Source: Psammoneis japonica
Lineage: Eukaryota
Direction of reading: 5' to 3'
Length of the DNA: 23,156 bases
NCBI GenBank assembly: GCA_008632985.1
Contig: QPGO01000143.1
Coordinates: forward strand, 186,001-209,156
Shown: piece by piece, positions 941 through 19,672 of the stretch
Layout of the letters: every line of letters begins with the position of its first letter
Numbering within the stretch: position 1 is the first letter of the stretch
The notes under the pieces: generated by a model
What the model was told of the DNA's origin: nothing
What the model saw: the letters and a program-made list of their open reading frames with translations, nothing else
The model's database searches: none
Program-made: the position numbers and the translations under genes

Positions 941-1150
941 CTTTCAGTCGCGAAAGCAAGACTGGAACTCTCAGTCATGACCGTTAACTTTTACTTAGCA
1001 TGCGCCCTGACTCTGCAAGACTCTCACAAAATCGCATCTCTGCAAACGAAAGCCGAAAGCTGCAAATTCACCCTCTCCCCTCTTAGTGTAGAGAACTAAC
1101 TGGCATGATTGATCGATCTACTAAAAGTGATTGTCCAGAAACTCATCAAC

Positions 1151-2335
1151 ATGAAATCCCCGTTTCGCTACACAGCACTGATGATGTTAAATTTCATCCC
1201 GTTGTTGAGATTGATGTGGCTTCATCCGATTCATGAGAAGTCGGAAGAAATGTTCGTAACGGATCCTGATAAACCCGTTACCGACTTGCCTAACTTGCAA
1301 GAGGAGCATTCCTTATGCGCATCTTGGGACAAGAACATGGATGACTGGTGGACAAGCCATCCCGATTGGAGTCTCTCATCTGAGAATGACACGCACTACT
1401 GCTTTTCGCCGATGGAAGACAAAGCCAAAGCTAAGTTCTTCCGGAGACTACACGACATTCAACATAACGGAGACTGCTCAAATATGGTAGTTAAGGAGCT
1501 TTGGTCATCAGGTTGGGGAGCTGACTTTCTTAACATTAATGATGGTCTCATTCACGCCCTCGATGCGAAACAACCGGTGCAAATGCACACACATAGCCAT
1601 TGGCACTACGCGGCCAACAAGGAGAATGGGAGTCATGCTGCGTGCCCGAAAAAGGATCTGTCTTGCTTCTTTCTGAATATGTCATCTTGTGAGGTACCGG
1701 ATGACCTTCCCAGAGAGAAAGTGGTCAATGCTCTTCTTGCAACGAAATATTCTCTCCATATTCATGAACTCATGTCGAGCTGGGCATACGAATACGCGAC
1801 CCGCCCACAAAGCTGGCTGAGGCGTGCCGTGTATGAGTACTCAACCAAATCGGCTAATCTATCTACGCCGTGTGCGGCCATGCACGTCCGTAGAGGTGAT
1901 GTTGTACTGCATGGCAATTGGTCACGAAAGTACCACGAGATTCACGAGTACATCGACGCAGCAACGGAACGAAATCGTTCTCTACACAAAGATGAACGAA
2001 GCATTTTTTTGCTGACAGATGATCAAAATGCAATTGAAGAAGCATCATCCCAGTTTCCTGACTACAACTGGGTGTTTCTAGATAGGCCACGCCATCGTGG
2101 GGCTGAAGGCGGGTGGGAAAGTCAGACCCCATCCAACGACCCGAAACAGGAAGTGATCATCATGTTGTCCATTTTTCGTCTGGTTCAGCAATGTGATACA
2201 CTCATTCACTCTACCAGTAACTTTGCCGACTACCTCTGGCACTACATGAGCGACTCCGTGAAAATCAACATTGATGACGGGAAATCCGATGTGTACGGTG
2301 CACATAATTTCAAAGAAGTCGTCACGCCGAACTAA
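1151..2335 (+). CDS. GT23 / alpha-1,6-fucosyltransferase-like (FUT8/NodZ-type) glycosyltransferase, type II membrane, 394 aa
   Basis: Uninterrupted ORF from ATG 1151 with an N-terminal hydrophobic anchor. Motifs AMHVRRGD, IFLLTDD and QCDTLIHSTSNF match the GDP-fucose-binding motifs of alpha-2/alpha-6 fucosyltransferases. Confidence 0.75.
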   Translation: MKSPFRYTALMMLNFIPLLRLMWLHPIHEKSEEMFVTDPDKPVTDLPNLQEEHSLCASWDKNMDDWWTSHPDWSLSSENDTHYCFSPMEDKAKAKFFRRLHDIQHNGDCSNMVVKELWSSGWGADFLNINDGLIHALDAKQPVQMHTHSHWHYAANKENGSHAACPKKDLSCFFLNMSSCEVPDDLPREKVVNALLATKYSLHIHELMSSWAYEYATRPQSWLRRAVYEYSTKSANLSTPCAAMHVRRGDVVLHGNWSRKYHEIHEYIDAATERNRSLHKDERSIFLLTDDQNAIEEASSQFPDYNWVFLDRPRHRGAEGGWESQTPSNDPKQEVIIMLSIFRLVQQCDTLIHSTSNFADYLWHYMSDSVKINIDDGKSDVYGAHNFKEVVTPN

Positions 2336-2896
2336 CAGGTGCTATTCAAGCTTTGCTTACTGAATGTATCAAACAATTCAAAGAAAGACTTGTTTTTGTA
2401 ATCTCTTGTGGTGATTGCATCGTTTAGCATTGTAACACGGGTACGTAGTAGCCCTTGGTCAGGATATTACATGCAAGATGGATGCTACGACTAGGTTAGA
2501 ATAGGAAAACTTTAAATTATGTAGGAGAACCACAACCCATAGACACCTTCCAGCTTCTCTTCGACTGCTAAAGAGCAAGACTCGCTCTCTTCTCGTGTGG
2601 CGCAATAAAGCAAGGAGATGGGTCGACATCTTACTCCAATCATACGTGTTGGACATGCGGCTGCATGTCGTTCATTCGTACGACACAATTCGTCTTTAGG
2701 GTTTATTGCGTGTTGCTGCTTTGGTATCTCCTTTTTGTTTTTTAAGTAGAGTAGCATGGGCTTCCTGAATAATGTGTACGGTAGTGTTGCAGGGAAGATA
2801 ATAATGTGCAATGAGTGTTCCAGTTGTTCCTCCGACATACAAGTTCAACTCTATTCTAGCTAGAGTAGAGAGTCATTAGTCGACAAAACTACAATA

Positions 2897-5722
2897 CATG
2901 GCATTCAGATGACCGAGACATTTGCGAAGATCCTGCCATTTCGCTTCATGACGGTGCTGGTGTGCTCCTCACAGAATGGCAACACTGCGAACGAAAGCGC
3001 CATGAGGCATGAACAAGAACCTCAATGCCAAATTGTGCATCAGAATGCCCATTGTGCCATGCTGCAATCTGAGAGGCATCTGCAGAGAAAGACTTGTCTC
3101 ACAGAAGCAGCAGATCTTTGAACCCATGCCAGCTGAAGCTGTTGTGGACAAGGCCAGCTGTGCTGTCCACCTCAAATGCACCCATGGAGCAGTTCCTCCT
3201 TTTCTTTCAGGGTGTCAAGAGAAAGGTCATTCCACTGGCTGGCCATTGAAGAAAGAGTGGCGCCAGCTTTAACCCAGGCCAGCATTGCAACACTCAAGGG
3301 CAGCATTTCAGCCTTCCCGCCCATTGGGTGTGCAGTGTGCGCAGCAACTTTGCTGACAACATCTTCATCTTAAATCTTTCAAGTGAGTAGAAAGAAACAA
3401 ATGGTGCCCACAAAGCAACTGTGAAAGAGCCACAGATGTGGCACAGCTCTTGTTGTGCCCAGCGCAGCACTGAAAAGCATGCTTGAGTTGCAGCTGAGAG
3501 CTTGGGGCATGCTGGCGGGATGAGGCAATGTCACTTGGATCCTCTGCAGGAGACAGCCAGCAACAGCAAACAGAGTTGTCAGACTGGGCACATTGGAACA
3601 AACACAGCTTGCTGTTTCAAACATTCCTCTCCCTCTCCTTGAAGCCACCATTTCCTTGGCAACAATGAGCTGGTCTAAAAGAAAATTGGGGCGCGGGGTG
3701 CCTTTTGCACATTTGCAACCCTGGCTTGAACCCTGCCCAGAACTGGAGAAGGGTTTGCCTCAATTGTGTTTCAAATGTCAAGAGAATGTGATTGTGCAAA
3801 CCTTCAAATTCAACTCTGTGGGAGGAGGATGGCGGCAACTGGGGTTGGCAGCTGGAGAGGCACAAGCCACCAACAAGAAAGGAGCTTGGCATTGCTGGGA
3901 GATGTGGTGTGGAACGACAGGTCTTCAATTGGTGCTTTGAGTTGTGGCAAAGTGTCATGACCCACAAAATCATTTGATGTCACCAAGTTTGGTGAGCCAC
4001 CCATCCTCTCCAGCAATTTTGAAACTCAGAGTTGTTGATTGTTGACACAGTGTGACAATTTTTTCTTGGATGGGATGTGTCCCAAACCCCAACTTTTTCT
4101 TCTTGTGTGCTGGAAGTGGCAGCCCAAATTGTCCAAAGAAAAGGCCGGACAATCTGGCGCACTGCTTTGTGTGCAGAAAAAGAAGACAACTCTCTTTGCA
4201 ACCCAAACTGTGGCCTGATTTGATGAGTCATGCTGGGAGTTGACAGCAGAAGAGTGGTGGCCAAGAGTGCACACGTGTGCTGGGCTCATGTTGCAGCTCT
4301 TGCTGCTTCTTGCTCCTTGCCCTCACATGTGTGTTGTGTTTGATGGCAGGTGCACTTGCATTTTGCCAAACAAAGTGCAAGTTTTGTGAGAAGCTGTCAG
4401 CAAAAAAGCCTCTGCCAGCAAACAGGAGTCATTGGCTGTCATGCTGTGGACAGCCAGTTGAGAAAGGAGAACCCAACATGAGACAAGGCAAAAGTCCATT
4501 GCACCAACTTAAGCCAACACAGCTGTTCAAACATGGGAGGAGCCCTGCATCAACTGGAGAAGGGAAAGATGCAAGTGACACGTTGTGACAGTGCTGCAAC
4601 TGGTGGTGCAATCTTCATGTGTGCACCACCCATTTTCCCCTTCCTCAACTCTTTCTCTTTTTTTTGTTGCTGATGGTCAGTTTGTTTGGCTTTGTTTCTT
4701 TTTTGCTGACGTCTTTGTGCACTTTGGCTTTTGCTTTTCTTTGTCATCATTTTTTCCCACATGGCAGCCTCTGCAGCTCCAGCCACCCACATTGACCTCT
4801 GTGCTCATGTTTTGTTTGGGCCAAAGCAGCTGCATTTTTTCTCAATGGAGTTTGCCCTTTTTGTGCCTGCAAGTTTGTTCTTGGCAATCCAGTCATTGTT
4901 TTTGCTGGCCCTGTGAGGAACAAATTGTGGCACACACACTTTGTGTTTCTCTAAAAATTGCTGTTTTTTGTTGTGCCGGTTTCTTGGCCTTGCGGGCTGG
5001 GTTCACAGCTGCAAAAGTTTTTTGTTCTTGCCTGCTTCAGCATCCAAGATTTTTGCTTCAAACAGAGCAGATGGGGCCTCTTTTTGGCATCCCACCCTCC
5101 TCAAACATGCCCTCTTTGGCTTTGTCTGACTTGCTGCTTGCTTGCCACTTGAAGCATGGAGGAGTCCAAGGACAAGGCCAATGGACCAGAAGGATGGCTG
5201 AAAGTGGGCCAAAGAAGGAAAGCATGCTTTTTCCAATTGCTGGCTTTTGCCATGTCAACCACCTTGATGAGGGCTTTCTTGTTGTTCTTCTGGCTGTGAT
5301 GATTGATGAGCTCTCTGTCAGCTGATGCAAAACTGTCAATCAGAAAGGTGTCATCATCCTTGTCTGGTTCGCTCTTGAGAACTTTTGTTGTGGCACTGCT
5401 TCATCGGAGGAGAAAAGGCAAATGAAATGCCAACCCCAATCTTCAAAAGGGGCTTGAGTGACTTTTGGGTTCCCAGCCTTGACTGTGTTCTCAGTCATCT
5501 CAGAGTTGTCCAGTGTTCCATCTCCACCACCACGTTTCCTGTGGTGCTTTCCATCCATCGGGTGCTGGCATCTTTTCCCATGTTGTCAAAGAGCTTGTTT
5601 TGGATGCCTTGTTGCTTCGAATTTTTTTTGGAGAAGTCGTCTCGCTTTGTGTGGCCATCTTCTTGCAGGAGGACGGTGCACCTTTGCATTTGGTGCTGTT
5701 GGTTTTGGTGGCCATGGCGTTT
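2897..5722 (-). pseudogene. Hypermutated TpA/CpG-depleted block containing a decayed minus-strand coding sequence of unknown family (TE or captured gene)
   Basis: Only 6 TA in about 2.8 kb. Protein-like minus frames, e.g. from ATG 5715 (MATKTNSTK...KVLKSEPDKDDDTFLIDSFASADRELIN) and 3369-2946 (DEDVVSKVAAHTAHPMGGKAEMLPLSVAMLAWVKAGATLSSMASQW...), are broken by TGA and lack Tyr. Confidence 0.5.
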
Positions 5723-6111: not shown

Positions 6112-6939
6112 TCATTTGATTCTTGTAACAAGTACCTCAAATAGCAGAGTCGCGTCTGTCTTGAATAGGTTTTCGAACCTTCGCTTTCCGTCTTTTGTAG
6201 TAGGTAGGGGAAGTTGGTTTGCTTTGCGGGCAGGATAAACCTGTGTGGATGGAACCTCGATCCGTCGCAAAGCATTTCGATGCATCCCCATCATGCCCTC
6301 TTCTAGACCTGGCAATAGTTCGCCACTTCCAATTGTCCATGCCAATTCATTAAAATCTGTATCTTCCTTTGTGGAAAAAAACTTGATCCCTCCAGGTTCG
6401 TTCTGTGTCGCAAAGGACTTGCATCGAATCGTCATTTCGACAGCCACCTTGGATCCCTGACGGACGACTGTGAAGATGGATAAAGCCTTATGTTATATAA
6501 GGTACGTGAACAGCATTACATGTTTGAAAATGCTCAACACCAATGGTACGTACCCTCCTCTCCCTTTCCTTCGCGGTATTCACGATACGACACGCCAGAC
6601 GGCAACTCCGTGAACGGAACATCGACAAGGTCTGTTGCCGGTTTTTGGATGGCTTCGATCTGACGCAATCGTTGTGCCGTCCCCGATTCATCTCCCTCTA
6701 CGGGGAGACTTTCAGCAGCGACGGGTCGATCCCGGCATTTGCCACCGATGGGATTGTCAACAAGGTCGCGAGGCTGCTAGCTGTAGTAAGAAACGACCGA
6801 CGACTTGTTGCTGTACTTCCTGTCTTTGTCGATTCGGCGCCCGTTGTTGAGTAGTTAGAGAAAAAGCAATGCAGACCTCCCCAAATCCGATCGCCTGAGC
6901 AACAAGGACAAGTACACACGGCTTCAGCTGTACCATCAT
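6112..6939 (-). CDS. FKBP-type peptidyl-prolyl cis-trans isomerase, probably plastid thylakoid-lumen targeted; 2 exons (intron 6468-6553); two apparent 1-bp deletions (~6805, ~6711)
   Basis: FKBP motifs LPSGVSYREYREGKG, GELLPGLEEGMMGM and ATLLFEV. Signal peptide ends ...CIA-FSL, followed by a twin-arginine peptide SRRSFL...VANA. A GTACGT...CACAG intron joins the frames correctly. The start could alternatively be 6948. Confidence 0.8.
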
Positions 6940-7404
6940 GGCGGCCATCAAATAAGATTGCAATAGCGGTGTTAGCGGTGTTGTAGGGGAGATACATAGT
7001 GATGACGATGTCACGAGAAAGCTTATCATGGCAAGGTGAAAGATACTTTCCGCATCAGTGATGATTTTTAATCTACAGCACGGACTATTGTATAATAAAT
7101 CACTATGACAAAAATAGAACGTGATTTTCGCTTACAGCTGACGATGAAACGGCTCGCTGTGAGATTTGTACTCGACGAGCCGTGGAATATTATATATTCA
7201 TCCTTTATATATTATAAACTGAATAGTACTACAATTCCTTATACTACATATACCTGGTATTTACTGTACTGTGTGGATTCTCCCTCCATCGTGGATCGAC
7301 GAAGAAAATCGACATGATGCGAATCGTGCGTGGTGTTTTTCTTGCTGTTGCTTTTAATCCCCACAATCATTGCAAAAGCAACAACCATCAACAACAACGA
7401 AACG

Positions 7405-8039
7405 ATGCAATCAGATACAGCGAATGATGCTGCAATTGCCTTGGCAATCGCAGAGCAAGAACACCAACAAGCAACAGCAAACAATTCTTCTGTTGTCGCG
7501 CACGACTCGTCATCGGCACGTCGTCCTCCACAACAACAACCATCACCGTCTCAAACGAGTAGTGTCTCGTTACCTCCATGGCTTTCTTCGCTCGTTCGAC
7601 AACAACAACCCTACATGTGCACGGTTCCCTGCGTGATTAGTGGTATTTGTGTCGAACTCATGGTGGATTCGGGAGCATGCACGTCGGTCATTTCGTATGA
7701 ATTGGCCAAACGCTTGAATTTGGAGTCACGCATCGACCGCCGACACGGTGGTGTCGCCAATGGGTGGGACAAGCCAAGATTTTGGGAAAAATATCGGGAG
7801 TTCCGGTCGAATTGGGACATGTCGAGTTTTGTATGGATTACTCCGTCTTGGATGTACCGCAACAACAATTGTTGTTGTTGGGATTGGATCAAATGAGAAA
7901 ATACAAATGCATTATTGATTTGGAACAGGATGTACTGATCTTTGGTGGGCATGGTGGCGTACAGGTACCCATGTTGAAACCACATCAGCAGCAACAACAG
8001 CCAATGTTTCGAACACAAGACGCATGTGAAATCATGTAA
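7405..8039 (+). CDS. DDI1-like retroviral-type aspartyl protease domain protein with no UBL/UBA; apparent 1-bp deletion at ~7763
   Basis: Catalytic MVDSGA. Adding one G gives GVANGVGQAKILGKI, then LLLGLDQMRKYKCIIDLEQDVLIFG, typical of the Ddi1 RVP domain. Confidence 0.8.
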
Positions 8040-8521
8040 ATTAGGTGTTTGGGCAGAGCTGGTCCTTTTCGCGATGTGATGCTCCTCCCTCCATACCGGT
8101 GCAGTAGTAGAGTAGCTTGGTTAGAGAGTTTTCTGCAGTGCACCAGTAGCCACAACACCAGCCAACCCAAAAAGCCAAAATGCTGTGAATATAACGAATA
8201 GTACCCGTACGTCTTGTTGAGTTGTCGCGGCTCTTTCGCTCACAAAAGTTCACGACCAAAGCACGACTGCGAGAGGAGATTTGATTTCAGCCACACGACC
8301 CAAACCACGTTGGTCATCGGAGCACTATCGTCCATTCGAAGCTAACAATCCCTGTACTGGTACTTGATTCTTAATTGGGATACACTAGTTAATCATATCA
8401 CTACTTTGACCTTATACAAGAAAGCCCACTCCACTAAATTGTGCTTGTTCTTTTTCATTGTACATGAGCTGGTCCTTTGCTGCTACCCCTCCTTCTTGTT
8501 ACTTTTTCCCGGCCTGTTTGG
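7871..8521 (+). repeat. Direct repeat copy A (~650 bp): DDI1-like 3' end, intergenic DNA and last codons of ACS
   Basis: Colinear diverged match to 10395-11053, from gttgttgttgggattggatcaaat to ttactttttcccggcctgtttgg. Confidence 0.95.
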
Positions 8522-8630
8522 TCACAAAAAAATAGGTGCCCAGGTTAGCCCCGTTGTACGTAAATGGGAACGGAGGGAAATCCAGCCGAACTAGGCCACC
8601 ATTGACCCCCCCCCAAAAGTGACCAAACAG
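8514..8630. repeat. 12-bp inverted repeat CTGTTTGGTCAC / GTGACCAAACAG at the duplication junction
   Basis: 8514-8525 is the exact reverse complement of 8619-8630. Confidence 0.7.
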
Positions 8631-8860: not shown

Positions 8861-10150
8861 TCATTGCTTGCGGCACACAATTTTAGTTGATGGCATCTCT
8901 TCGCCCTTGCATATTGATTTCAACACGAGTTCGAGAACTATCCAGTTCAGTAGGTCCGTGTTATGACACAAGTTCGCAGAATCCAAGAGAGCCTGAATGG
9001 CCGTGCAATTCCCAATCGACAACGCCGTTGCCAACAGGTCTCGGGAGTACTGAATGGCGGTTGAACCATCATCGTCCACGTTGTCTCTGATGTGGTCCAG
9101 CAACACAACATTATTTAGAAAGGCAGACAAAATCTCAGGAGGCCAAACCCCCTTATTGTTGCCATGCCTCCAAATGAGACACTGAAGAGGAGTGTCGCCG
9201 TCGACATTGGTTTGGAACAAGGCTGTCTTGAGGCATTTCAAGGTTGTCGACGACTTTTGGACCATCCAATTGGCCAGCTCGAGCACTCCATCATTTTTCA
9301 CCGACGCATTCTTAAAAAAGTAGTGCATGGGGTTGTTTCCCCTGCGGTCCTGTCGTCGCAGGGCCGAAGGATAACGGTGAATGACCCTCTTGACAAGGCG
9401 GACCGAAATGCCGGAATAAAGAGCTGCTCCATCCTCTTGCGATAAATAATCCAAGAAAGATTTGGTTGCGGTTGCCGGCGTGTAATCTCGCGATAAGTAG
9501 TCCGAGAAATACTTTGTTCTTGCGACAGCCGTCGTGTAATGTTGCGATAAATAATTCGAGAAAGCATAGTGAAGGGGTAGGCAGTATGTATCCTCATTGA
9601 CGAATTTGACCGCCTCCTTGCGTTTGTCAAAAATGCTCCAAATATAACTGGTAGGCAGCGAGTTTTGGAATGCTTTGTGAAGGGCGTCATCGTCCATAGT
9701 CTCGTCGTCGTCGTCGTTACCGGAAATCGTGTGCAACGCCCAAACAAATGACCTGGGAAGGAAATTGACCGAGCCGCAAGGGTTTCGTTTCCAACTCAAT
9801 AGCGCAACTAGTAACAAGTCTTCGGTGCAGACATTGTCATTCTCGTCGCTCTTGCGGAGACAGATCGACTCGTAACGGACCACATGGATCTTTCCGATTC
9901 TGTCAAAGCGAATGGATGCAGGCTCGGTGATCAAATCGTGTCGATCCATGAGATCGTAGTAACACGAGGGACATCTCGGATAAGCTTGAGTGTCGTCCAA
10001 GCAGCAAATTAGATTCTGAATGTGTTGACGGGCTATTGGAGATAGCGAGTTGTTGTAGGTAGAGGCGAAGGCATCCGGTGGGTCCATGCTAACGGACTCT
10101 TTGTTGTCAGTCCAGTTGGAAGCAGAGGAGAAGGCACGCGGTGGGTCCAT
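8861..10150 (-). CDS. Degenerate ankyrin-repeat-like protein (~429 aa)
   Basis: Long ORF with ankyrin-like segments YCLPLHYAF, VIHRYPSALRRQDRRGNNPMHYFF and QTNVDGDTPLQCLI. Internal repeats are spaced in multiples of 3 (63, 51, 54 nt). Start uncertain: in-frame ATGs at 10438, 10246 and 10150. Confidence 0.6.
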   Translation of the reverse strand: MDPPRAFSSASNWTDNKESVSMDPPDAFASTYNNSLSPIARQHIQNLICCLDDTQAYPRCPSCYYDLMDRHDLITEPASIRFDRIGKIHVVRYESICLRKSDENDNVCTEDLLLVALLSWKRNPCGSVNFLPRSFVWALHTISGNDDDDETMDDDALHKAFQNSLPTSYIWSIFDKRKEAVKFVNEDTYCLPLHYAFSNYLSQHYTTAVARTKYFSDYLSRDYTPATATKSFLDYLSQEDGAALYSGISVRLVKRVIHRYPSALRRQDRRGNNPMHYFFKNASVKNDGVLELANWMVQKSSTTLKCLKTALFQTNVDGDTPLQCLIWRHGNNKGVWPPEILSAFLNNVVLLDHIRDNVDDDGSTAIQYSRDLLATALSIGNCTAIQALLDSANLCHNTDLLNWIVLELVLKSICKGEEMPSTKIVCRKQ

Positions 10151-10394
10151 GTTTGTTGGATGGTTGAAGAGATCAGCAACGTCTCGCGATTGTAATGAAA
10201 TAGCGTGGTTTCTTATGATGTTGGATGCTGGGGATGGGACGAACATGATTGAATGAGATGCATGGTGGTCGCAGGTAGGTCTCGGTCGCAGGTCTGCAGT
10301 CTTGTCTCGACTGACGTGGTCGCGGGAAGCGCACGCAAGCCGCAACGGAAACGCAAGGACCACAACATTGATCAAAGGACCATTTCTTTTGACA

Positions 10395-11053
10395 GTTGTT
10401 GTTGGGATTGGATCAAATAAGAAAATACAAAAGCGCATTATTGATTTGGAACAGGATCTTTGGTGGGCATGGTGGCGTACATGTACCCATGTTGAAATCA
10501 CATCAGCAGCAACATAATGGCCAAAATGTTTCGAACACAAGAAGCATGTGAAATGATGCAAACTAGGTATTTGGACAGAGCTCAGAGCTGGTCCTTCTCG
10601 CGACGTGATGTTCCTATCTCCATACCGGTGCAGTAATAGTTTGGCTAGAGAGCGTTCTCTGTAGTGCACCAGTATCCACAATATAATACCGGCCACCCCA
10701 ATAGTCAAAATGTTGTGAATACCCGTACGTCGTGTTGAGTTGTCGCGGCTCTTTCCCGCACAAAAGTTCACGATTCACGACTGGAGCACGACTTCAGACT
10801 GGGAGGGCATTTCAGCTACGCGACCCCGACTGCGAGGGTCATCGAAGCACTATCGTCCATGCGAAGCTCATAATCTCTGTACCAGTAGTACTTGGTTCTT
10901 CATCGGGATAAACTAGTTAATCATATCACATCATTGCACTACTTCGACCTTACAAACCCACCCTACTATATTGCGCTTGTTCTGTTTCATTGTACGTGAG
11001 CTGGTCCTCTGCTACTACCCCTCCTTCTTTTTACTTTTTCCCGGCCTGTTTGG
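10395..11053 (+). repeat. Direct repeat copy B: frameshifted DDI1-like 3' fragment, intergenic DNA and the functional ACS stop
   Basis: Colinear with 7871-8521. The DDI1 portion carries a +2 insertion and an 8-nt deletion. Confidence 0.95.
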
Positions 11054-13160
11054 CATTGATCTTTTCAATCAACGTGTCGACAATCGACGGGTCCGCCAAG
11101 GTGCTTGTATCGCCCAACGAATCCACCTCACCCGCTACAATTTTGCGCAGAATGCGTCTCATGATTTTTCCACTCCTCGTCATGGGCAAGGACGGCGTGA
11201 CACAAATAACATCGGGACTGGCAAAGGCACCAATCTCGGTGCGGACCATTTGGCGCAGCTCCTTCTCGAGCGTTTCCGTTTCTTCGAATCCCACCGTGAG
11301 CATGCAAAAGGCACAAATCGATTGGCCCTTGATGTCGTGGGCTTGTCCCACCACGGCGGCTTGGGCGACGGCGGGATGACCCACGAGGGCGCTCTCGACT
11401 TCGGCCGTTCCAATGCGGTGACCACTCACGTTGAGCACGTCATCGACACGACCGGTAATAAAGTGGTAGCCGTCCTTGTCGCGAATGACAGCGTCGCCGG
11501 TAAAGTAGTAGCCCTTGTAGGGTTTCATGTACGTCACCAAGTACCGTTGGTGATCGCCCAAACAAGTCCGTGCCATGCCGGGCCACGGTTGACGAATCGC
11601 CATGACACCCTCGACACCATCTTCAGTGGAATCCAATTCCTTGCCCGTGTGAGGGTCCAACACCACCGTGTCAATGCCATAGAAAGGCAAGGAACAACTA
11701 CCGGGTTTCATGGGTGTCACTCCGGGAAGATTGGTAATCACGTGTCCACCCTGTGAAAAAATGTGAAAAAATAGCAGCGTTAGTGTTTTCCTCTACAGAG
11801 GGAGCTTGAACAAATCGGACAAATCATATATATTGTAACTTACCGTCTCGGTCTGCCAATAGGTATCGACAACAGCACAATTCTTCTTGCCCACCACTTC
11901 ATAGTACCACTTCCAGGCTTCGGGATTGATGGGTTCACCAACGGTACCCAGAATTTTGAGACTGTCGAGATTGTGGTTCTCCACATGCTCGTTGCCGTAA
12001 CGCATCAAGAGACGAATGGCCGTCGGTGCCGTGTACAAGGCATTGATTTGATGACGCTCCACCATGTCCCAATAACGAGCCGGCGTTGGATAGACGGGGG
12101 TGGACTCAAACATGAATGTCGTGCCTCCATTCAAGAGAGGGCCATAGACAACGTACGTGTGTCCCGTAATCCAACCACAATCGGCAACACAGGCAAAGAC
12201 ATCGCCCACCTTCAAATCAAACACGATCTTGGCCGTCATGGCAGCGTAGAGGGCGTATCCACCCGTCGTATGGAGCAAACCCTTGGGTTTGCCCGTGCTC
12301 CCCGAGGTGTACAGGATAAAGAGCGGGTCTTCGGCATCCATAGTGGCTGGAACACAGTACGGACGCTGCAAGGCCACGAGCGGATCCATGCGTACATCCT
12401 TGTCCAGCATATCATACGGTGCGTCCTCGGACTTTGGGTCATGAAACCGCTCATACACCAACACCTTTTCCACCAAGTCGTCATTGCACCTCGTCAGAGC
12501 GTCATTGACGATCTTTTTGAGTTGAATGGTTTTCCCTCCACGCTTCCCCACGTCGGCCGTCACGACACACTTGCTTTGCGCCGCCGTAATGCGTTGCGCC
12601 AGAGCTTCGGCGGAAAATCCGGCAAACACCACGGAATGAACGGCACCAATCCGAGTGCACGCCAACATGGTAAAGGCCAATTCGGGAATCATGGGCATGT
12701 AAATCGTGACAACGTCTCCCTGTTGGACACCCTGCGATTTGAGGGCGTTGGCGACTTGACACGTTTTGCGCAACAGCTCGGTATAGGTAATGGACCGCAC
12801 GTCGGCCGGCTCGTCTCCTTCCCATAAAATGGCAACCTCGTTACAGGCTCCTCCTGCGGCTGTTCCCGTTGCCCACCTGTCGACTGCATTGTAACTCATG
12901 TTGAGTTTCCCACCGGCAAACCACGTGACATCGCCATACTCCATGGATCCACCCATGACACTATTGGGATTGAATGGCTGAAACCAATCGAGGTATTCCG
13001 TCGCCTTTTTTGCCCAATACGTTTCGGGATCGGCAATGCTAGTCTCGTGCTCGAGTTTGTACCGAGCCAGAGCCAAGTCAGACTTGCTCTCCACCACTTG
13101 CTTCATCCAAACATTATGTTGCTGCTGTTTCTGCTGGTCTTGCTTTGCTTCTTCAGTCAT
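11031..13160 (-). CDS. ACS: Acetyl-CoA synthetase (AMP-forming acetate-CoA ligase), 2 exons (intron 11751-11843), ~678 aa
   Basis: [31 protein letters not shown] across a GTAAGT...CACAG intron, [23 protein letters not shown] and [13 protein letters not shown]. No obvious targeting peptide. Confidence 0.96.
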
Positions 13161-13167
13161 ATTTACT

Positions 13168-13227
13168 GTTGTCGTTGTTGTTGTTGTTGTTGTTGTTGTC
13201 GAGTCTTATCTATTGTTGTTGTTGTCG
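13168..13227. repeat. (GTT)n/(AAC)n microsatellite just upstream of the ACS start codon
   Basis: gttgtcgttgttgttgttgttgttgttgttgtc...ttgttgttgttgtcg. Confidence 0.9.
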
Positions 13228-13488
13228 TTTTTGTTGAGTCGTATCTCTCTATGAGAACGCGAAGCAACGTCTTGTTGGCTTCAACACCTCCTCAACTGGC
13301 TTTTGGCATCGCGAGTTTGAATGAAGTTGAGTGTGTTGACGAGTGTTCTCATGTTTTCAGAACCTCACGTAGAAATCTACGTTGATTTGTAGGGAAGATC
13401 CAAGATTTGCAAGATTTGCCGCCGACATCAGCACCACGTACGTGCATCGAAAGGTAGACGCGCGTCTCTCTCGCGAGTCGCGAGCGTA

Positions 13489-16400
13489 CCGTGGGCCACT
13501 TTGTGCTTGGTGCTGTCAGCTCTCAGCTCCATCTCTTGTGTGTGCTGACCTCAAGCCCAATGTGTTGGAGCAGGTCTGCTGTGAGGTTGAGCCCATCATC
13601 TCACACTTGCTCTCAGTTGAGAGGCCACAGACAGCTGCCCATTGCTTGTGTGGCAAAATGAAAAAACAGACAGAGTTCTGGCTCCACTCATTTGTCCAAG
13701 GTTGGGTCATGCATGTTGGCCTCCCAGTGGCAACAAATGGCAACATCCCCTCCATTGGATTGAGCATCCTGGGAGATGGAGGGTTGCCATTGGTGCAAGT
13801 CTGTGATGAGCCCAAAATGGCCTCCCCCACAACATCCTGCCTGTTGCACAACTGCCCATTCTTTGCTCCAAAATCCCTGTGGGACACAGCGGGGTTGACA
13901 CCATGCCACCTCTTTGTCTCATCTCAAGGGAGCACCACCTCTCTGGTGAACAAGGTCAAGCACCTTGGCACCAAAGGCAACACGGGGTTGGCGAAGGTGT
14001 TGTGGCTCCAGGATTTTGGGCCCCATCTGAAGCTTGCAACCAACCAATGAATGACACAGCAGCTCCAGCCCCCTGTCTGCCACAAGAGCTGGGAGAAAGC
14101 TTGGGTGGCACAGCACCCCCAGCCAAGGGCTTCTTAGAAGCAGCACAGCTGCAGCCACAATTGCTGCAATGTGGGTCATCATTGCCCAAAGTGCTGTGCT
14201 GCAGATCTCAAACAACTCATGATTTTTTTAAGTCACAAACACAGTGGGGGGCAGCAGAGCCAGCAGAAACACAAGCTTCGCACATGGATTCATCCAAAGA
14301 GGGTGCTTTAAAGCACTGTGCCAAATGTGCCTCAGAGCTCATCAATGCAAGCAGAGAAGTGGTGCATTTGTGTGCAGCTGTGCAGCAGCCAAAGTGCTTG
14401 TGCAGCAGGAGGTTGTGCTTTGGAGCAGGTCTGCTCCTTCAACATCCAACTCTTTGTCACAGAACATTTTCCTGCACAAGTTGCTGCTGTGTGATCCTTG
14501 GCACAACTGCCAACATGCAAATGTCTCTCCTCCCTTGTGGAGCAGACTGCAGTGTGGGTTTCAACTGTGAGTGATCCGTGATGCTGAGAGGTTGTGCAGA
14601 GACTGGCCATCAACATTGCACGTTGCACCTTGGATGTGTGAAAAGAATCCTGAGTGCACAATGTTGCACTGTGCAGCATTCACCAAGTGCCAAGCCAAAC
14701 TTGGAGCATTGCTCTTCACTCGTGAATGAACATGTTCACGCCATTGCATGAAGAAAATGCAGTGCTCAAATGACTTCATGTTTCTCAGCCAGGTGTGCCA
14801 GCTCAGGAGAAATGTTCTTGCAACTGCAGTCAACTGCAATCTGTCAACCTGCTTTTGCTAAAACTGCCTGCTTGGCATGTGAGGCAAGAGCTGCTGCATT
14901 GCAACAGATGATCTGCTGCTTTTTTAAAGCCAAAGCTGCAACTTTTGATTTTTTGGCTTTGGCGCTGCACCACACTGCCCTTTGGGCAGTGCTCTCTTTA
15001 ACTGGGAGACTGGCGAGGTGATGAGTTTTCATCCCAGGTTGGGGTTGGTTGCCGGGTGTGACACTGTGTTCATCTGTTTTCCATCACCATGCTTTTTGCA
15101 TGAGAAACAATTCTCATCTGAGCTCATGCTTTTTCCCAACATTTTGCATCATCTTTCATCAGATCTGTTCACTTTCAATGACTGGCACCACCTTCTTTGT
15201 TTGTTGGAGGGTGCAGACAAAAAGAGAACAAAGCTCTTTCAGAGTCCCTTTTTTTCCACAGCAAAGTGGCAGGAAACTGCACGTGGCAGCTTTTGGAATG
15301 ATGTTCTTGAATTGCTCTTTTTCTGTTTTTTTCTTGTTGCATTTGACCATTTCAAAAGAATGTCAGCTTTCTCTGTTTTGCAATGAACTCGTGCAAAAAA
15401 AGACCATTCTGGCACCATTGTGTTGGTGCAAAAACTTGGGCAAACTGATTCACACACATTTTTCTGTGCGGCCGCCGGCCCTCAAAAGAGCCAGCAGATT
15501 TGTTCACCAGCGCAAATGCCCAGCATTGCAGAGGCAGTCTTTGACTTTGTTGACTGTGTTGCAATGAAATGGTTGCTTGGCAGAAGCAGGTGCACTGGCC
15601 GAACATTGTGGCAGAACCTCTGATGTTTTTAAACAACAACAAACTCTGCTCTCTGTTTTGCAACAAAGCAAGTGGGCTGCAAAATCTGGATGTTGTTGGT
15701 GCCATTGTCATGCTTCACAATGTTTGACACACACGTCACTCATGTCTGAGCTCCTTGGTCATCTTGAACCCTCCTCAAAAACAGAGTGGGGGCATTCTGT
15801 CACTGGCGCCAAAAATCAATCTGTCCAAGTGCATCAAAGTGCCAAGGTGCTGCACATGTTGGCATGAAATGTCAAAGCAACCACTCCAATGTGTCATGAA
15901 AACACAAATCATAAAAACACAAATCAAACCTGGTCAAAAATGTCCCCACAAGACAAAATGCACCACTGGCCACAGCAACACCCCGGTGAACTTTTTGCAT
16001 CAACCAGCCTCCAGCCTTTTCTTGCCACCAGCTCACAACTGTGCTCTTGCTTTCACAGCCCTGGCAGATGTTTGTGTGCAAATGGACATTTCTTCATGGC
16101 AGCAACATCGTGCCTTTGTCTGGTGTGCAAGATTTGTGGATGTGAGAAAAACAAAAAATGGCAACACTGCATGGGAGAGTGCAAAAATTGCACATGGGCG
16201 GCTGTGGTGTGCAAAAAAGTGTGCGTCACACAGAAATGTGCAGGAAACCTCGCCTGTTGTCTCCAAGTGACGACCCACCTGGGTTGAAAACAAATGAGGT
16301 GCAAGAAACAGCAGCCAAATGATGATGAGCTGCCTGCAGTGCCGCCCTCTGCCAGAGCTTGCAAAAGCTGTTGCTTGCGTGCCTGTGCTGCATGGCTCTC

Positions 16401-16631
16401 TGGCAACTGCCTGGCTTGCAGCCATCTCAAAGAAGCACACAGTGCACCCCCACGCAAACAGACGACGAGGAAGGTGTCTGTGTGCCGCACTGCAGCGCAT
16501 GGATCCAAAATGAAAACCATCTTGAAGCAACTTCAAGTGCGCTGACGGAGGAAAACACGCAGACTCGATTGTGACTCTCACATCCCTGTCAGCGCTCCCC
16601 TTCTGACGCATCTGCACGTGTTTGTCTGTTC
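13489..16631 (-). mobile_element. Hypermutated TpA/CpG-depleted block with a decayed minus-strand coding sequence; probable TE relic
   Basis: Only 8 TA in about 3.1 kb. Protein-like minus frames are interrupted by TGA (e.g. MHDPTLDK*VEPELCLFFHFATQAMGSCLWPLN*EQV*DDGLNLTADLLQHIG). No family motif or convincing TIR/LTR recognised. Confidence 0.5.
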
Positions 16632-16729
16632 TACAGATTCCTTCTACGATTTGTCCTACTAAAAGTCGACAAGACTAACCCTAAATGATGTGCAGAAATA
16701 GGGTCCTAACAGTTCCTAGCTAGAGTATA

Positions 16730-17209
16730 ACATTCCTCTTTACCGCGCGGAAGTAGGAGGTTTGAGGTTTATGATGACAGTTCTGGCACACATTCCTCTT
16801 TACCGGCATAAATGGGAAGCTTGTCAATCGTAATGACTTTCATTCTGAGGCATAAATGCTTTGTCCAAAATAAATGTGTTTTTGAATCCAATGACTTTTG
16901 ATGTTTATACTACCAATCTCTAGATTTCTACTGTGATCGTTTGGCTGATTCGAAAATGCTGGTCATGGTCATCGTGGCAACTCTCTGACTTTGTTCGTGT
17001 GGTGGTGTTACATAAGTACTGAATCCGAAATTAAGAAAAAATGAAGTTTAGGGCCTATGTGTCGTGCTCTGGGACAAGACTGCTCATAAATAATGTCGAA
17101 AGGGATTTACAGTACATAAAAGCTTTGTGTAAAATTTGTGTCATTATTTGAACCCAATGACTTTTCGTTATCAAGATATGCGGGTCATGGTCATTGTCGT
17201 TGACAACTG
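16730..17209 (+). repeat. Short degenerate direct repeats upstream of the M11 peptidase gene
   Basis: ACATTCCTCTTTACCG at 16730 and 16790. A diverged unit cataaa.gctttgt...ccaatgactttt...ggtcatggtcat at ~16851-16982 and ~17115-17209. Confidence 0.7.
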
Positions 17210-17462
17210 CATACATAACACAATGTCTCAAAGTCGCAGTTGATCATGGTGGAGTCATAGACGTTGTGTAGAATCAATACAGCAAGCTACAAGGACATTC
17301 CTTCAACGAAAAGCTCCGTACTGAATCTACGGGTGCGTGCAGGATGAACACCGCGTCTGCCACGTTGTGAACTCGCCTATTGGGCGCATTGGCTTTTTTT
17401 GTCAACGGTGGTGGCACAATTTCTCGAAATTGGTTGATTGATTGCAAGTTGTTGTTGAAAAC

Positions 17463-19672
17463 ATGAAAGCGTTTCTTGCGATCTCTCTCGCTGCGGCCTT
17501 GAAGTTGGGTTACCATGGAAGCTCAGCAGCGGTAAGCAGCTGAAACTCGTTTTGTGCTGAGCTTCGTTGCGCTCTTTCTTAGCCACGGTAACGGTCATTT
17601 TGTATTCTCACGCCGTTGCTGCTCTCCCGATCGCTACACTACAGAGCAACGTCTTTAACCTTCGTGGTCCACCCTTTCAGGATCAGACATTGCCTTGCAC
17701 TATGTTGTTGAAGGAGATTCATCGTGAAATTCCTGACCCGAGTTTGCCCGACTTTGCTTGGGATTGCGAGCTCGATCCTCAGGACGCTGATGGCGTTGAA
17801 GGCATCATTATGGAGCTGGACGGCCTGAACCTTCCACGCGACGCCAAGGATAACTTCGGGCAGAGGCTTATCTCCGGAGAGTCCACAGTCTTTGTGCCCG
17901 GAACCAAGATCGACAAGGGCAAGGCCAAGGCGAAAGTTCCTCCGGGAGTCCCACCTGCGTACGGCCGTCGTCGTCGCGAGGCTGCTCAAGGCGGTCGCCG
18001 ACTTCGGACAGGTAATTGGACGGTTTTTGCTGTACGTGTGATTGCCACTGACGGTTCAACAAGTAGCTCTACTGCTGCCATCAGCAACTTTGTTTTTGGC
18101 ACCTCTGGCGACCAGGTGAACCTCAAATCGCAGTACGCTGCCTGTTCGCATAATCAGCTTATGTTCGAGCCAGCGCCTTTTGCTACAGATGGGGTCATCG
18201 AGGTGACGGTAAACGTTGCTACTACCGAAGGCGATGGAGTCATGAGAAACGCCATTACAAGTGCGATCCAGAACCAATACGGACTTTCACCCAACAGTTT
18301 GGCAAATTATGGTACGTCTTTTTGACTCCTTGTTCATTTCGAGTCTCTTGATTCGTGGAATTAAATGCCCAACACACAAAAACGAGATTGATCTTGTTCT
18401 TGTTGCTAAACTCACTTCTTTTCTTCTGTTTCAGCCATGTATTGCCTCCCTTCAGGTACTATGAGTGGGATTGCGTATGCCTACATTAACTCGTGGAACT
18501 CTGTCTATTCCAACCAATGGTGCAATTACGTTTCCGCTCAAATGCATGAGCTTGGACATAATATTAACCTGGCACACAGCGGTGAAGGATCACAGCAGTA
18601 CGCGGACCAGAGTGGAATGATGGGGTACTCCTATTCGAGTAGCGAGACCCCAAAAATGTGTTTCAACGCAGCAAAAATGTGGCAGCGTAAGTCTACATCA
18701 TTTGGCAAGTGTTCTCATTGTTTGTGAAATATTTACTCTCAACAATAATCTCTCTTTTACCTTCTTTTTCGCATCATGCACAGTCGGTTGGTTTTCTGAC
18801 CGCCACGTAGCGATCAATCCGCTTACTGCGGCTGGACCGGTGATATGATTGGGTCAGTCGACTACGAGAACTCGGCAAGCGACAAAATGATTGTCCTCAA
18901 GATCAACAGGACCGCCACGAGTGAAGATGATTTGTTTGTCATGTTCAACCGAAAGGCTAGCTACAACTCGGACACGAAAGAAGGCGGAAACCAGGTCATG
19001 ATTGTGGAAACCGGAAGAGAAGGCCTTTTGTACGACAAGTCTCTTCTGTAGCCAAGTTGAGTGCTGGTGGGCAGTATGTGATCCCGAATTTTGATGGAAG
19101 TGGAACAGATGTCACCGTTACCGTGAACAGCATCAACCTAAGCAGCACTCCGGCAATAGCGTCGGTAACTGTTCAAGGTTTTACTGCATCTCCAACGGAA
19201 TCCCCAACTCCCTCTCCGACGGATTCACCGACACCTTCCCCTCCACCAACGGATTCTCCAACTGGATCCCCTTCGTCGTCTCCATCAGCGGCGCCAAGCT
19301 CGCCGCCGACTCCTTCCCTCCACCACGTCTTCTCCAACTGGATCCCCGTCGTCGTCTCCATCAGCGGCGCCAAGCTCGCCGCCGACTCCTTCCCCTCCGC
19401 CGACGGCATCTCCGAGTGAATCCCCGTCGTCGTCTCCATCAGCGACGCCAACCTCGGTGCCGACTCCTTCTCCTCCACCGACGGCATCTCCGAGTGATTC
19501 CCCGACGTCATCTCCTACGAAGGGCCCGACGCCGACGCCGACTCGTTCTCCTACACCTTCTCCGACTCCTGCGCCTGTAGCTGTGAATTGTGCTCCGTTG
19601 CGGGGTGGAACATGCAGGGATGCAGGTTGCCAATGGCTAGGTGGACAAGGTGGTTGCGTCCCTTCAAACTAA
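17463..19672 (+). CDS. Secreted M11 (gametolysin-like) zinc metallopeptidase with Pro/Ser/Thr stalk and short Cys-rich tail; introns 17532-17644, 18312-18434, 18687-18783; four apparent 1-bp deletions (~18828, ~19048, ~19317, ~19327)
   Basis: Signal peptide [19 protein letters not shown] processing site. MYCLP...[10 protein letters not shown]. Zinc motif [12 protein letters not shown] and DQSGMMG, then [12 protein letters not shown]. All three GT-AG introns are phase-compatible. Confidence 0.85.
19228..19520 (+). repeat. Coding tandem repeat, 78-bp unit ([20 protein letters not shown].), about 4 copies
   Basis: Unit starts at 19228, 19306, 19382 and 19460 (spacing 78, 76, 78). Confidence 0.9.

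Follow-up and report, generated by a model that had tools for sequence, protein, structure and literature searches.

Three tracts of DNA lying between ordinary genes of the diatom Psammoneis japonica look like the result of targeted A-to-G hypermutation of DNA, superimposed on the ordinary decay of methylated CG. The window analysed here is a stretch of 23,156 nucleotides (contig QPGO01000143.1 of assembly GCA_008632985.1, positions 186,001 to 209,156 of the forward strand); within it the three tracts, hereafter blocks 1 to 3, lie at 1-984, 2896-5722 and 13491-16631 and total 6952 bp, a converted share of 30%. We put at roughly 65% the probability that these blocks are discrete segments of a diatom chromosome, now non-coding, in which two overlapping mutational processes have rewritten the sequence in place, one acting on TpA and the other on CpG.

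Composition and reproducibility of the blocks

The depletion of TA and CG in the blocks is confirmed as real and extreme. A recount gave 8 TA in 13491-16631 and 14 over the three blocks, exactly as stated in a preliminary description of this DNA, where about 285 would be expected in 6952 bp from the 41.0 TA per kb of the rest of the window. The observed/expected ratio of TA is 0.03 in the blocks and 0.60 in the rest of the window, and that of CG is 0.21 against 1.01, in keeping with the earlier statement that both are abundant outside the blocks. TG stands at 1.80 in the blocks compared with 1.21 elsewhere, and CA at 1.81 compared with 1.20; loss of CpG along with gain of TpG and CpA is the pattern of methylated-CpG decay. 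The share of pyrimidine-purine steps is the same inside and outside the blocks (0.240 and 0.249), as expected for transitions only. AA and TT are enriched (1.43 and 1.27, versus 1.17 and 1.10 in the rest of the window), while GC is raised (1.39) and AT lowered (0.70).

Each block has a CG-poor core and at least one margin that keeps its CG, and none of them is assigned to a strand. Block 1, which is truncated by the start of the window, has its core at 1-719 and a margin at 720-984 with normal CG and no TA. In block 2, with six surviving TA, the core extends from 2999 to 5532 and the margins from 2896 to 2998 and from 5533 to 5722. Block 3, with eight surviving TA, has its core at 13491-16452 and its margin at 16453-16631; its first 400 nt contain neither a TA nor a CG.

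The cut-offs used for hypermutated clusters in the main text of a preprint on the alga Bigelowiella natans (discussed below) were applied to 1-kb windows, namely TA of at most 0.43 and CA+TG of at least 1.52. Block 3 passes in four consecutive windows spanning 13001-17000 (those starting at 13001, 14001, 15001 and 16001, with TA of 0.27, 0.09, 0.03 and 0.36 and CA+TG of 1.54, 1.93, 1.81 and 1.57), and block 2 passes in two fixed windows, or in three when these are phased on the block. Altogether 7 of the 23 one-kb windows here pass, versus 0 of 1786 in a control set of 958 kb of unrelated metagenome loci. Chance is excluded by this control together with the 400-nt run free of TA and CG. The 80 control loci came from a metagenome scan with the acetyl-CoA synthetase encoded beside block 3; four of them are at 59-65% identity, all at most 5 kb long, and the others at about 50%, and the scan yielded no recognisable orthologous diatom neighbourhood.

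The sequence of block 3 is reproducible and not peculiar to the assembly. A Logan contig of 3484 nt from public run X1, with a mean word depth of 66.9, covers positions 13239-16657 with three differing letters and no gaps, an agreement that is not independent of the sample, since X1 may be the assembly's own source. Logan contigs are assembled from 31-letter words of the reads, so that such a match requires accurate reads. The run contigs differ from the window at 390 places.

Borders of TA loss and of CG loss

The loss of TA is separable from that of CG. The last or first TA at each visible edge lies at 985, 2895, 5723, 13487 and 16632, and the TA borders are abrupt and placed within about 20 nt. 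At four of these five edges CG resumes 100-265 bp inside the TA border. The abrupt transitions that had been described before thus hold for TA, which is sharp at all five edges, but not for CG, which at four of the five changes elsewhere. The margins, 737 bp in all, contain 36 CG (48.8 per kb) and no TA at all; outside the blocks CG density is 57.6 per kb, and in the cores it drops to 8.7 per kb, about 15% of normal. CG retention in the cores depends on the preceding base, being 8% after T, 12% after A, 18% after C and 27.5% after G (chi-square p 7e-5). TCG is accordingly the most depleted CG context of the cores, while in the margins it is well represented, with 19 of 72 strand contexts.

A second activity, beyond CpG decay, had been called for in the preliminary description, and two results bear this out. 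When the window's own ordinary DNA was converted in silico and its 4-mers were correlated with those of the blocks, conversion of TA only or of CG only gave r = 0.79 each, and conversion of both gave 0.89. The margins are the second: there the loss of TA is total while CG is normal.

The sole edge at which TA and CG change at the same nucleotide adjoins a CG-dense, partly palindromic stretch of 70 nt (13420-13490, assigned to neither strand), which sits between the start of the acetyl-CoA synthetase gene and block 3 and contains the inverted repeat I1 (13436-13487). It has 17 CG/TA positions, after which there are none for 400 nt.

Sequence context and strands

Three independent tests agree in pointing to a change of A to G on both strands, one that was fast at T-A-Y, slower at T-A-G and nearly absent at T-A-A. 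The first concerns the TA that survive. Eight of the 14 in the blocks lie in TTAA and 12 of the 14 in Y-TA-R, whereas outside the blocks the corresponding figures are 22 of 664 and 14% (Fisher p 1.4e-8 for the difference in TTAA); every word of the form R-TA or TA-Y is present in the blocks in 0-1 copies. TTAA itself has a density of 1.17 per kb in the blocks; elsewhere in the window it stands at 1.35 (22 in 16.3 kb), and at 2.59 in the non-coding part outside the blocks, so that the blocks do not simply avoid TA.

The second test was a simulation that took the window's own non-coding DNA as starting material. The rule T-A-Y >> T-A-G >> T-A-A, together with CG decay, gave the best fit (4-mer r 0.928, dinucleotide rms deviation 0.090), compared with 0.891 and 0.156 for a context-free rule and 0.783 and 0.236 for the reversed rule. 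The preferred rule explains much of the GC excess and the AT deficit of the blocks, though it still underfits them, giving GC 1.30 against the 1.39 observed, AT 0.81 against 0.70 and AA 1.31 against 1.43.

The third test compared products at four asymmetric site classes. Of those predicted from the T-A-Y strand, the blocks contain 532 and the rest of the window 703, a 1.77-fold enrichment, whereas the alternative products at the same four classes number 298 and 614, or 1.13-fold (Fisher p 1e-6). TGY and RCA occur at 79 and 76 per kb in block 1, 68 and 48 in block 2, and 74 and 66 in block 3, versus 39 and 38 in the rest of the window, and the products of both strands are found in each 500-bp sub-window of each block; block 2 shows a moderate strand bias (193 versus 137). 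A target A that follows T and precedes a pyrimidine is the footprint expected of a TadA/ADAT2-type enzyme, a likeness confined to the level of the footprint.

Contents of the blocks and neighbouring genes

None of the 121 open reading frames of the blocks (22 of at least 100 aa and 99 of 45-99 aa) matched Pfam at the curated cut-off; eight weak matches, mostly cysteine-rich and chance-like, had E values of 0.0008-0.18. The 254-aa frame at 13810-14571 had no HMMER match among 1.84 billion representatives, the 166-aa frame at 252-749 had none in a word-indexed protein search, and Rfam gave no match within the window. In a purine/pyrimidine code, codon periodicity is absent from block 3, where scores are 1.2-4.1 as against 11-27 for clear genes, and reaches a weak 5-6 in parts of block 2, a test of little power since the fucosyltransferase-like gene described below also scores only about 3.

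No convincing terminal inverted or direct repeats or target-site duplications were found at the block ends, and no tandem repeats in the window that would account for the composition. Sensitive blastn detected no similarity among the blocks or between them and the rest of the window, and transition-blind blastn of purine/pyrimidine-coded sequence did no better than shuffles (best scores 34-41, shuffled maxima 31-45). Over most of its length block 3 has no further match of at least 80% likeness among the public-run contigs, so that targeting triggered by repeats is not evident. Diverged copies of about 450-918 and of 15044-15228 are present on other X1 contigs, a hint that these short parts of the blocks may be repeats. 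The searches turned up no relative or ancestor of a block in an unmutated state, and we infer the direction of change, from TA and CG to TG and CA, from composition. At one time the target had probably been a piece of mobile or foreign DNA.

The genes beside the blocks are ordinary. Between blocks 1 and 2 lies an open frame on the forward strand (1109-2335) with an alpha-1,6-fucosyltransferase-like domain (PF19745, 37.5 bits, cut-off 27.6), of normal composition (TA o/e 0.52-0.65, CG 0.78-1.06). To the left of block 3, on the reverse strand at 10917-13160, is an acetyl-CoA synthetase gene (AMP-binding 250 bits, ACAS_N 58 bits), likewise normal in TA and CG content. Its exon 1 lies at 11843-13160 and its intron at 11750-11842, and exon 2 is covered by contig down to 10917; a contig of run X2 joins 11749 to 11843, and the intron ends are CT..AC. 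The synthetase has 59-71% identity to diatom proteins, and the diatom-like character of the flanking genes agrees with the assignment to a diatom made earlier from the letters of the window. No RNA run is recorded as containing the stretch, and run X2, which is cDNA-like, lacks cover on most of the blocks; neither observation has a bearing on expression.

Other explanations of the blocks

It is very improbable that one ADAT2-like deaminase with a dual activity, acting on A at T-A-Y and on C at T-C-G with no need of cytosine methylation, made both kinds of change. The ranking of CG retention in the cores by preceding base, lowest after T and highest after G, is what such an enzyme would produce, though deamination dependent on local duplex opening would give the same ranking. 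The margins tell against it: having lost all TA, they have kept CG, T-C-G contexts among them, so that the activity on C would need something found only in the core. The ADAT2/3 of amphioxus can convert A in DNA to I, which is read as G, and its ADAT2 deaminates C as well as A in DNA and prefers 5'-TCG-3' for C, but for adenine, in E. coli, it favours GAA and not TA (PMC10354150).

Improbable to a like degree is the editing of an element or virus before insertion, in the form of RNA, cDNA or episomal DNA, with integration afterwards and CG decay later still. The TA borders would then be insertion junctions, and both their sharpness at all five visible edges and the different footprint of CG decay, lying further in, are in line with this. 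The presence of both strands' products in every block and sub-window is unlike the outcome of a single-stranded intermediate, however, and the removal of at least 95% of targets in a single passage is implausible; an element so heavily edited could not cycle again, and the block ends show neither the target-site duplications nor the terminal repeats that were looked for there. In B. natans, moreover, the mutations are reported to build up in DNA that is already integrated (bioRxiv 10.64898/2026.01.13.699255).

The preliminary description had offered error-prone gap filling by polymerase eta, at T:G mismatches left by deamination of 5-methylcytosine, as one of two candidate sources of the A-to-G changes. 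Over most of each block the losses of CG and TA do coincide, and long repair patches could extend the 100-265 bp past a methylated core. The hotspot of polymerase eta is WA, which is to say AA as well as TA, but AA and TT are enriched in the blocks rather than depleted, and TA is gone from margins whose CG is intact. The TA borders are sharp and not graded, near-total erasure of TA with 21% of CG left is hard to obtain if deamination of CG is the trigger, and neither so strict an influence of the following base nor the survival of TTAA is a known trait of this polymerase. Taken as a cause of the blocks, it is very improbable.

We give still less credence to an intrinsic composition, under which the blocks would belong to a kind of DNA made or selected to be free of TA and CG, for instance so as to escape a nuclease or a transposon dependent on these steps. 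An ancestor containing TA or CG has not been seen, as this would have it. Against it, three tracts of no detectable mutual similarity have the same composition; nothing in them looks functional by Pfam, Rfam or codon periodicity; TTAA persists; and their second-order composition is that produced by T-A-Y conversion of the neighbouring non-coding DNA.

A sequencing or base-calling artefact on modified DNA is hardly credible, even though the sole run containing the stretch, whose platform is unrecorded, may also have furnished the assembly, since the X1 contig reproduces block 3 with three differences, 5mC and 6mA are read as C and A in accurate reads, ordinary TA and CG are back within about 20 nt on the same contig, and TTAA is called normally within the blocks.

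Relation to known mutational systems

The preliminary description held the process to be undescribed. Its kind no longer is, because TpA-to-TpG/CpA hypermutation of integrated giant-virus and virophage DNA has been demonstrated in Bigelowiella natans by mutation accumulation (Mettrop et al., 2026, bioRxiv 10.64898/2026.01.13.699255). According to the main text of that preprint, of the 231 new mutations that the mutation-accumulation lines acquired in two regions of integrated viral DNA, 230 were A>G or T>C, all of these on TpA; ADAT2 was proposed as the enzyme; and the genome contains 124 clusters, in which 78 of 96 genes are without annotation. The loss of TpA, the gain of CpA and TpG, the action on both strands and the kilobase-scale clusters are the same in the diatom blocks. 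There are also differences. P. japonica is a stramenopile and B. natans a rhizarian; TA loss is near saturation here (Rho 0.03-0.09) as against 0.45 in the active giant-virus region of B. natans; and neither viral nor transposon ancestry is visible in the blocks. The blocks also lose CG, and the main text of the preprint makes no mention of CpG; nor do the terms 'context', 'trinucleotide' and 'TTAA' occur in it, whereas the blocks suggest that the following base matters and that TTAA is spared. Titles and abstract openings retrieved from the openly accessible literature yielded no TpA hypermutation or joint erasure of TA and CG in diatoms or other stramenopiles, no coupling of TpA hypermutation with CG loss, and no T-A-Y rule.

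Loss of DNMT5a in Phaeodactylum is reported to remove DNA methylation and to de-repress young transposable elements (Hoguin et al., 2023, PMC9998398). The low CG density of the cores and their gain of TG and CA resemble methylated-CpG decay, which cannot, however, remove TA, and CG loss here is limited to the inner core of the tracts. In the repeat-induced point mutation (RIP) of ascomycete fungi, C is changed to T at CpA, so that TpA is created; duplicated sequence is needed, and the changes leak gradually beyond the borders of the repeat. Horns and colleagues reportedly described, in 2012, a hypermutation of basidiomycete repeats at TCG. The blocks share with these fungal systems an irreversible scrambling that is limited to transitions, specific in context and confined to domains, and TCG is the CG context most depleted here. 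They differ from RIP in that the change falls on A and does away with TpA, that most of block 3 lacks a second copy at 80% or more, and that the borders are sharp; fungal RIP was rejected, TA (0.03), CA (1.81) and TG (1.80) showing the opposite of what it produces. ADAR- or APOBEC-like editing of single-stranded RNA or cDNA was likewise rejected, the products of both strands being raised and not those of one.

Adenine base editors derived from TadA can likewise convert adenine in DNA to I, read as G, and the natural target of TadA is A34 in the loop U33-A34-C35, which matches the T-A-Y proposed for the blocks. Of the two candidates in the preliminary description, a TadA-like adenine deaminase acting at T-A-Y on either strand is the better fit. 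We know of no organism in which a natural role of ADAT2 in genome hypermutation has been proven. Candidates appropriate to the lineage, though purely predicted, are the stramenopile-specific deaminase-fold proteins described by Iyer et al., 2011 (PMC3239186), namely deaminase-SAM-Tudor arrays and LmjF36.5940-like proteins, for which those authors suggested a link with RNA interference or a DNA-mutagenising activity. Their Tudor domains could target a deaminase to marked chromatin.

Proposed origin and significance

We propose that the first process would be a locus-restricted A:T-to-G:C hypermutation at the A of TpA on either DNA strand, fast from T-A-Y to T-G-Y (R-C-A on the opposite strand), slower at T-A-G and hardly acting on T-A-A, so that only TTAA would survive. 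It would span the entire segment up to nucleotide-sharp borders, its agent most likely being an adenine deaminase of TadA/ADAT2 type that acts on DNA, or else some other enzyme of the deaminase fold, steered to the segment through chromatin state or sequence homology. The second process would be the conversion of CpG to TpG/CpA through deamination of a presumed 5-methylcytosine, confined to the inner core and stopping 100-265 bp, or roughly the length of a nucleosome, inside most borders. Between them the two would scramble the segment irreversibly. The nucleotide-sharp TA borders count against this explanation in one respect, being unlike those of a spreading chromatin mark.

Natural mutation of adenine in DNA that is defined by a motif and limited by borders has so far been described in one alga and one preprint, with no known enzyme. 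The same footprint, brought to completion in a diatom, would if correctly read mean that the process is widespread among major lineages of marine phytoplankton. The blocks would also constrain its mechanism through the T-A-Y rule with TTAA spared, the action on both strands, and sharp borders that do not match the domain of CpG decay. Because diatoms lend themselves to genetic work, knock-outs could serve in the search for the enzyme; an adenine mutator of double-stranded DNA that is natural and sequence-specific would interest both the biology of genome defence and the technology of base editing. Blocks of this kind would also keep ancient mobile or viral DNA out of reach of homology searches, with consequences for the annotation of diatom genomes.

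More tentatively, and as a suggestion that may well prove wrong, diatoms and chlorarachniophytes might share a guided system of DNA adenine deamination, an 'A-version of RIP', in which segments are recognised to the nucleotide, probably by small RNAs or homology rather than by a spreading chromatin mark, and every T-A-Y is converted on both strands, alongside CpG methylation but independently of it. If this were so, the effector in stramenopiles could be a lineage-specific deaminase-Tudor protein rather than ADAT2, and blocks of this sort, given the share of the window that they occupy, would amount to a substantial compartment of the diatom genome that has gone unrecognised.

Extent and composition of the blocks

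A sliding dinucleotide count over the window identified three tracts in which TA is nearly gone, CG is scarce, and TG and CA are doubled. With borders drawn from where each TA and CG stands, these TA-free tracts lie at 1-984 (block 1, truncated by the window start), 2896-5722 (block 2) and 13491-16631 (block 3); combined they make up 6952 bp, 30% of the window. Within these tracts there are 14 TA; at the 41.0 TA per kb of the rest, about 285 would be expected. The observation in the preliminary description is thereby confirmed, and its tallies of 8 TA in block 3 and 14 over all blocks proved exact on recount. Observed/expected ratios in blocks and rest, respectively, are 0.03 and 0.60 for TA, 0.21 and 1.01 for CG, 1.80 and 1.21 for TG, and 1.81 and 1.20 for CA, while pyrimidine-purine steps keep the same share (0.240 vs 0.249), as is necessary if transitions were the sole changes. 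The first 400 nt of block 3 contain no TA and no CG at all. A TA ratio of at most 0.43 with CA+TG of at least 1.52 is seen in 7 of 23 window segments, vs none of 1786 one-kb windows from 958 kb of unrelated metagenome loci. At 15894-15923 there are two adjoining 15-nt tandem copies with a single difference, TG in the first and TA in the second; this TA is one of the 14 survivors, and the pair is the sole TA/TG contrast between sister sequences noted inside a block.

Separate loss of TA and CG

At the left edge of block 3, beside a CG-dense 70-nt stretch, TA and CG change together (13487/13490). At the remaining four visible edges the CG-poor core stops 100-265 bp inside the TA border, leaving margins at 720-984, 2896-2998, 5533-5722 and 16453-16631 (737 bp) with no TA and 48.8 CG per kb (36 CG); the cores (1-719, 2999-5532 and 13491-16452; 6215 bp) have 2.3 TA and 8.7 CG per kb, and the rest of the window (16,204 bp) 41.0 and 57.6. 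When ordinary window DNA was converted in silico at TA only or at CG only, its 4-mer correlation with the blocks rose from 0.65 to 0.79 either way, vs 0.89 for joint conversion. TA loss is thus separable from CG loss, and the second activity beyond CG loss that had been proposed is borne out both by the TA-free, CG-keeping margins and by the better fit of joint conversion. A single dual enzyme deaminating both A and C is kept alive as a rival by amphioxus ADAT2, which is described as acting in DNA on C at TCG and on A at GAA, but the margins, without TA yet retaining their CG, count against it. T-C-G is well represented there (19 of 72 strand contexts), so the TA-removing agent spares CG in the margins.

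How much CG the cores retain varies with the base before it: 8% after T, 12% after A, 18% after C and 27.5% after G (p 7e-5). Spontaneous deamination of 5mC is favoured by easily opened flanks, and this ranking fits such deamination; it fits a TCG-preferring enzyme equally. The cores may be CpG-methylated, by analogy with Phaeodactylum, in which DNA methylation and repression of young transposable elements are reported to depend on DNMT5a.

Sequence context of the TA change

Among the surviving TA, 8 of 14 lie in TTAA and 12 of 14 in Y-TA-R, vs 22 of 664 and 14% in the rest of the window (Fisher p 1.4e-8 for TTAA); TTAA density is 1.17 per kb in the blocks, 1.35 in the rest and 2.59 in the non-coding rest. 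Words with R-TA or TA-Y have 0-1 copies each in the blocks. Relative to context-free conversion the blocks show an excess of GC (1.39) and AA/TT and a deficit of AT (0.70) and GA/TC. In simulations on non-coding DNA of the window itself, with A changed to G on either strand and CG decay added, the rule T-A-Y (TpA followed by a pyrimidine, the A being changed) far above T-A-G, and that far above T-A-A, gave a 4-mer r of 0.928 and a dinucleotide rms of 0.090, vs 0.891 and 0.156 for a context-free rule and 0.783 and 0.236 for the reversed rule. CTAC, TTAT, TTAC and CTAT read T-A-Y on one strand but T-A-R on its complement, and can yield two distinguishable products; the T-A-Y strand's products are 1.77-fold up (532 in blocks vs 703 in the rest) and the alternatives 1.13-fold (298 vs 614; Fisher p 1e-6), an excess of about 231 products vs 35. 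Survivors, second-order composition and paired products concur on the T-A-Y rule.

The products on the two strands, TGY and RCA, number 79 and 76 per kb in block 1, 68 and 48 in block 2, 74 and 66 in block 3, and 39 and 38 in the rest. Both DNA strands have been struck. This favours an activity on the duplex, or on each strand in succession, over one on a single RNA or cDNA strand.

Sequencing runs and ancestry of the blocks

The public run coded X1 contains 98% of sampled words from 12600-17400, though the assembly may itself derive from X1, so that this agreement is no independent sample. Its Logan contigs were assembled from X1 reads alone using 31-letter words, with mean word depths of 54-67; contigs from such words at such depth require accurate reads, and accurate reads give 5mC as C and 6mA as A. 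One of 3484 nt spans 13239-16657, gap-free and with 3 differing letters, and further contigs span the flanks and block 2 (2198-4510, 11 differing letters). That the blocks are a sequencing artefact is very improbable, since contigs built from reads alone reproduce them and, on the same contig, ordinary TA and CG are back within about 20 nt of each block 3 border. The differences from X1 inside the blocks (3 in block 1, at 433, 748 and 824, being A>G, C>A and A>C; 11 on the block 2 contig; 3 in block 3) could be alleles or polishing differences.

Sensitive blastn found no similarity among the blocks, and after purine/pyrimidine recoding, which makes blastn immune to transitions, scores were no higher than for shuffles; judged by sequence, the blocks appear not to be copies of each other. 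None of 121 stop-free block ORFs (22 of at least 100 aa, 99 of 45-99 aa) reached the Pfam cut-off, two large protein searches with block ORFs gave no match, and three-base periodicity is absent from block 3, purine/pyrimidine code included; the blocks are not recognisably coding. Nor do they show an Rfam match, tandem structure or terminal repeats.

Diverged copies of short block parts (about 450-918 and 15044-15228) are found on other X1 contigs. Among the 30-nt loose-end consensus strings listed, those of X1 at 450, 599, 635, 918 and 15228, within blocks, have no TA in 150 nt, that of X2 (a second run) at 2967, in a margin, has one, and six from outside the blocks together contain 10 over 180 nt, a hint that other copies of block parts likewise lie in TA-free DNA. 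A 16.4-kb X1 contig and a 2.6-kb X2 contig each match both 1316-1449, a piece of a fucosyltransferase-like gene (12 differences in 134 nt), and 3497-3635 in block 2 (24 in 139 nt), the pieces being 645 nt apart there vs 2047 nt in the window. Such pairing points to a putative paralogous locus with the gene and block-like DNA adjoining; the gene family has additional diverged copies.

Neighbouring genes and repeats

The genes adjoining the blocks are ordinary and of ordinary composition. An alpha-1,6-fucosyltransferase-like open frame (1109-2335, plus strand) lies between blocks 1 and 2, and to the left of block 3, at a distance of 330 nt, is the start of an acetyl-CoA synthetase gene (minus strand, first exon 11843-13160). 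Identity between the synthetase and its best 120 relatives is 59-71%; the named ones among them are all diatoms except for one 'Kryp...' entry, presumably a dinoflagellate with a diatom endosymbiont. This indicates a diatom that has no closely related sequenced species in that collection. X2 contigs join 6467 to 6554 and 11749 to 11843, where X1 contigs are continuous; the joins are minus-strand introns of 86 and 93 nt, one of them inside the synthetase gene. As its contigs skip these stretches with CT..AC ends, X2, labelled 'DNA?', behaves like cDNA.

Directly upstream of the synthetase start codon, between the gene and block 3, lies a (TTG)n microsatellite that includes a duplicated 35-nt unit (13167-13246). 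A 78-nt tandem repeat of about 4 copies (19228-19557; 84-89% matches) lies in a GC-rich stretch of strong three-base periodicity and probably encodes protein rich in proline, serine and threonine. The two copies of a direct repeat, about 650 nt long and split into several pieces with 81-97% identity (7871-8540 and 10395-11053, 2.5 kb apart), flank a 636-aa open frame (8861-10771, minus strand) that has no Pfam match, with a retropepsin/DDI1-like open frame (7330-7896, plus strand) just upstream. This DNA is unconverted (TA observed/expected 0.36-0.75, CG 0.64-1.28); if it is a retroelement relic, then not every repeat-like DNA here is targeted.

Proposed mechanism and known systems

Beyond the composition, borders, context and both-strand action observed, we infer that the blocks originally had normal TA and CG and that the agent would be a deaminase, as the T-A-Y preference recalls TadA, which reads a U33-A34-C35 loop. 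A deaminase is the favoured one of the two candidates offered earlier. The other, polymerase-eta WA mutagenesis, is rejected, AA/TT being enriched in the blocks. Fungal RIP has a comparable outcome, but it makes TpA whereas the blocks lose it, and it too is rejected on this reverse change. Deamination would have taken place in situ, to judge from the both-strand footprint and the analogy with Bigelowiella natans, and its targets may once have been mobile or foreign DNA. Hardest to explain are the sharp TA borders, which suggest that sequence guides the targeting, through homology or through small RNA, or that a discrete unit was inserted, and less a spreading mark.

In mutation-accumulation lines of the chlorarachniophyte B. 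natans, an integrated giant-virus region and a virophage region are reported to have received 231 of the 302 nuclear point mutations that arose; of these 231, 230 are A>G or T>C, all of those at TpA, at a rate about 1000 times background and in some lines only, and an adenine deaminase of the ADAT2 type, working on DNA, is put forward as the agent (Mettrop et al., bioRxiv 10.64898/2026.01.13.699255). Block 3 falls within the TpA cluster definition as given there. The stramenopile-specific deaminase-fold proteins described by Iyer et al. 2011 as possible editing or mutagenic enzymes, some with Tudor arrays, are lineage-appropriate candidates alongside ADAT2. The preliminary interpretation thus stands in part, for a second activity and for a deaminase over polymerase eta, with a transposon origin and a role in defence as candidate readings, but its 'undescribed' is outdated by the B. 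natans preprint (bioRxiv 10.64898/2026.01.13.699255), the main text of which does not contain CpG, diatom, TTAA, context or trinucleotide. A process of this kind has already been described; as far as our searches reach, the literature holds no report of its occurrence in a diatom, of coupling to CG decay, of near-complete erasure, of the T-A-Y rule or of offset borders. The blocks would extend a recently described process to a new major lineage, with new mechanistic constraints.
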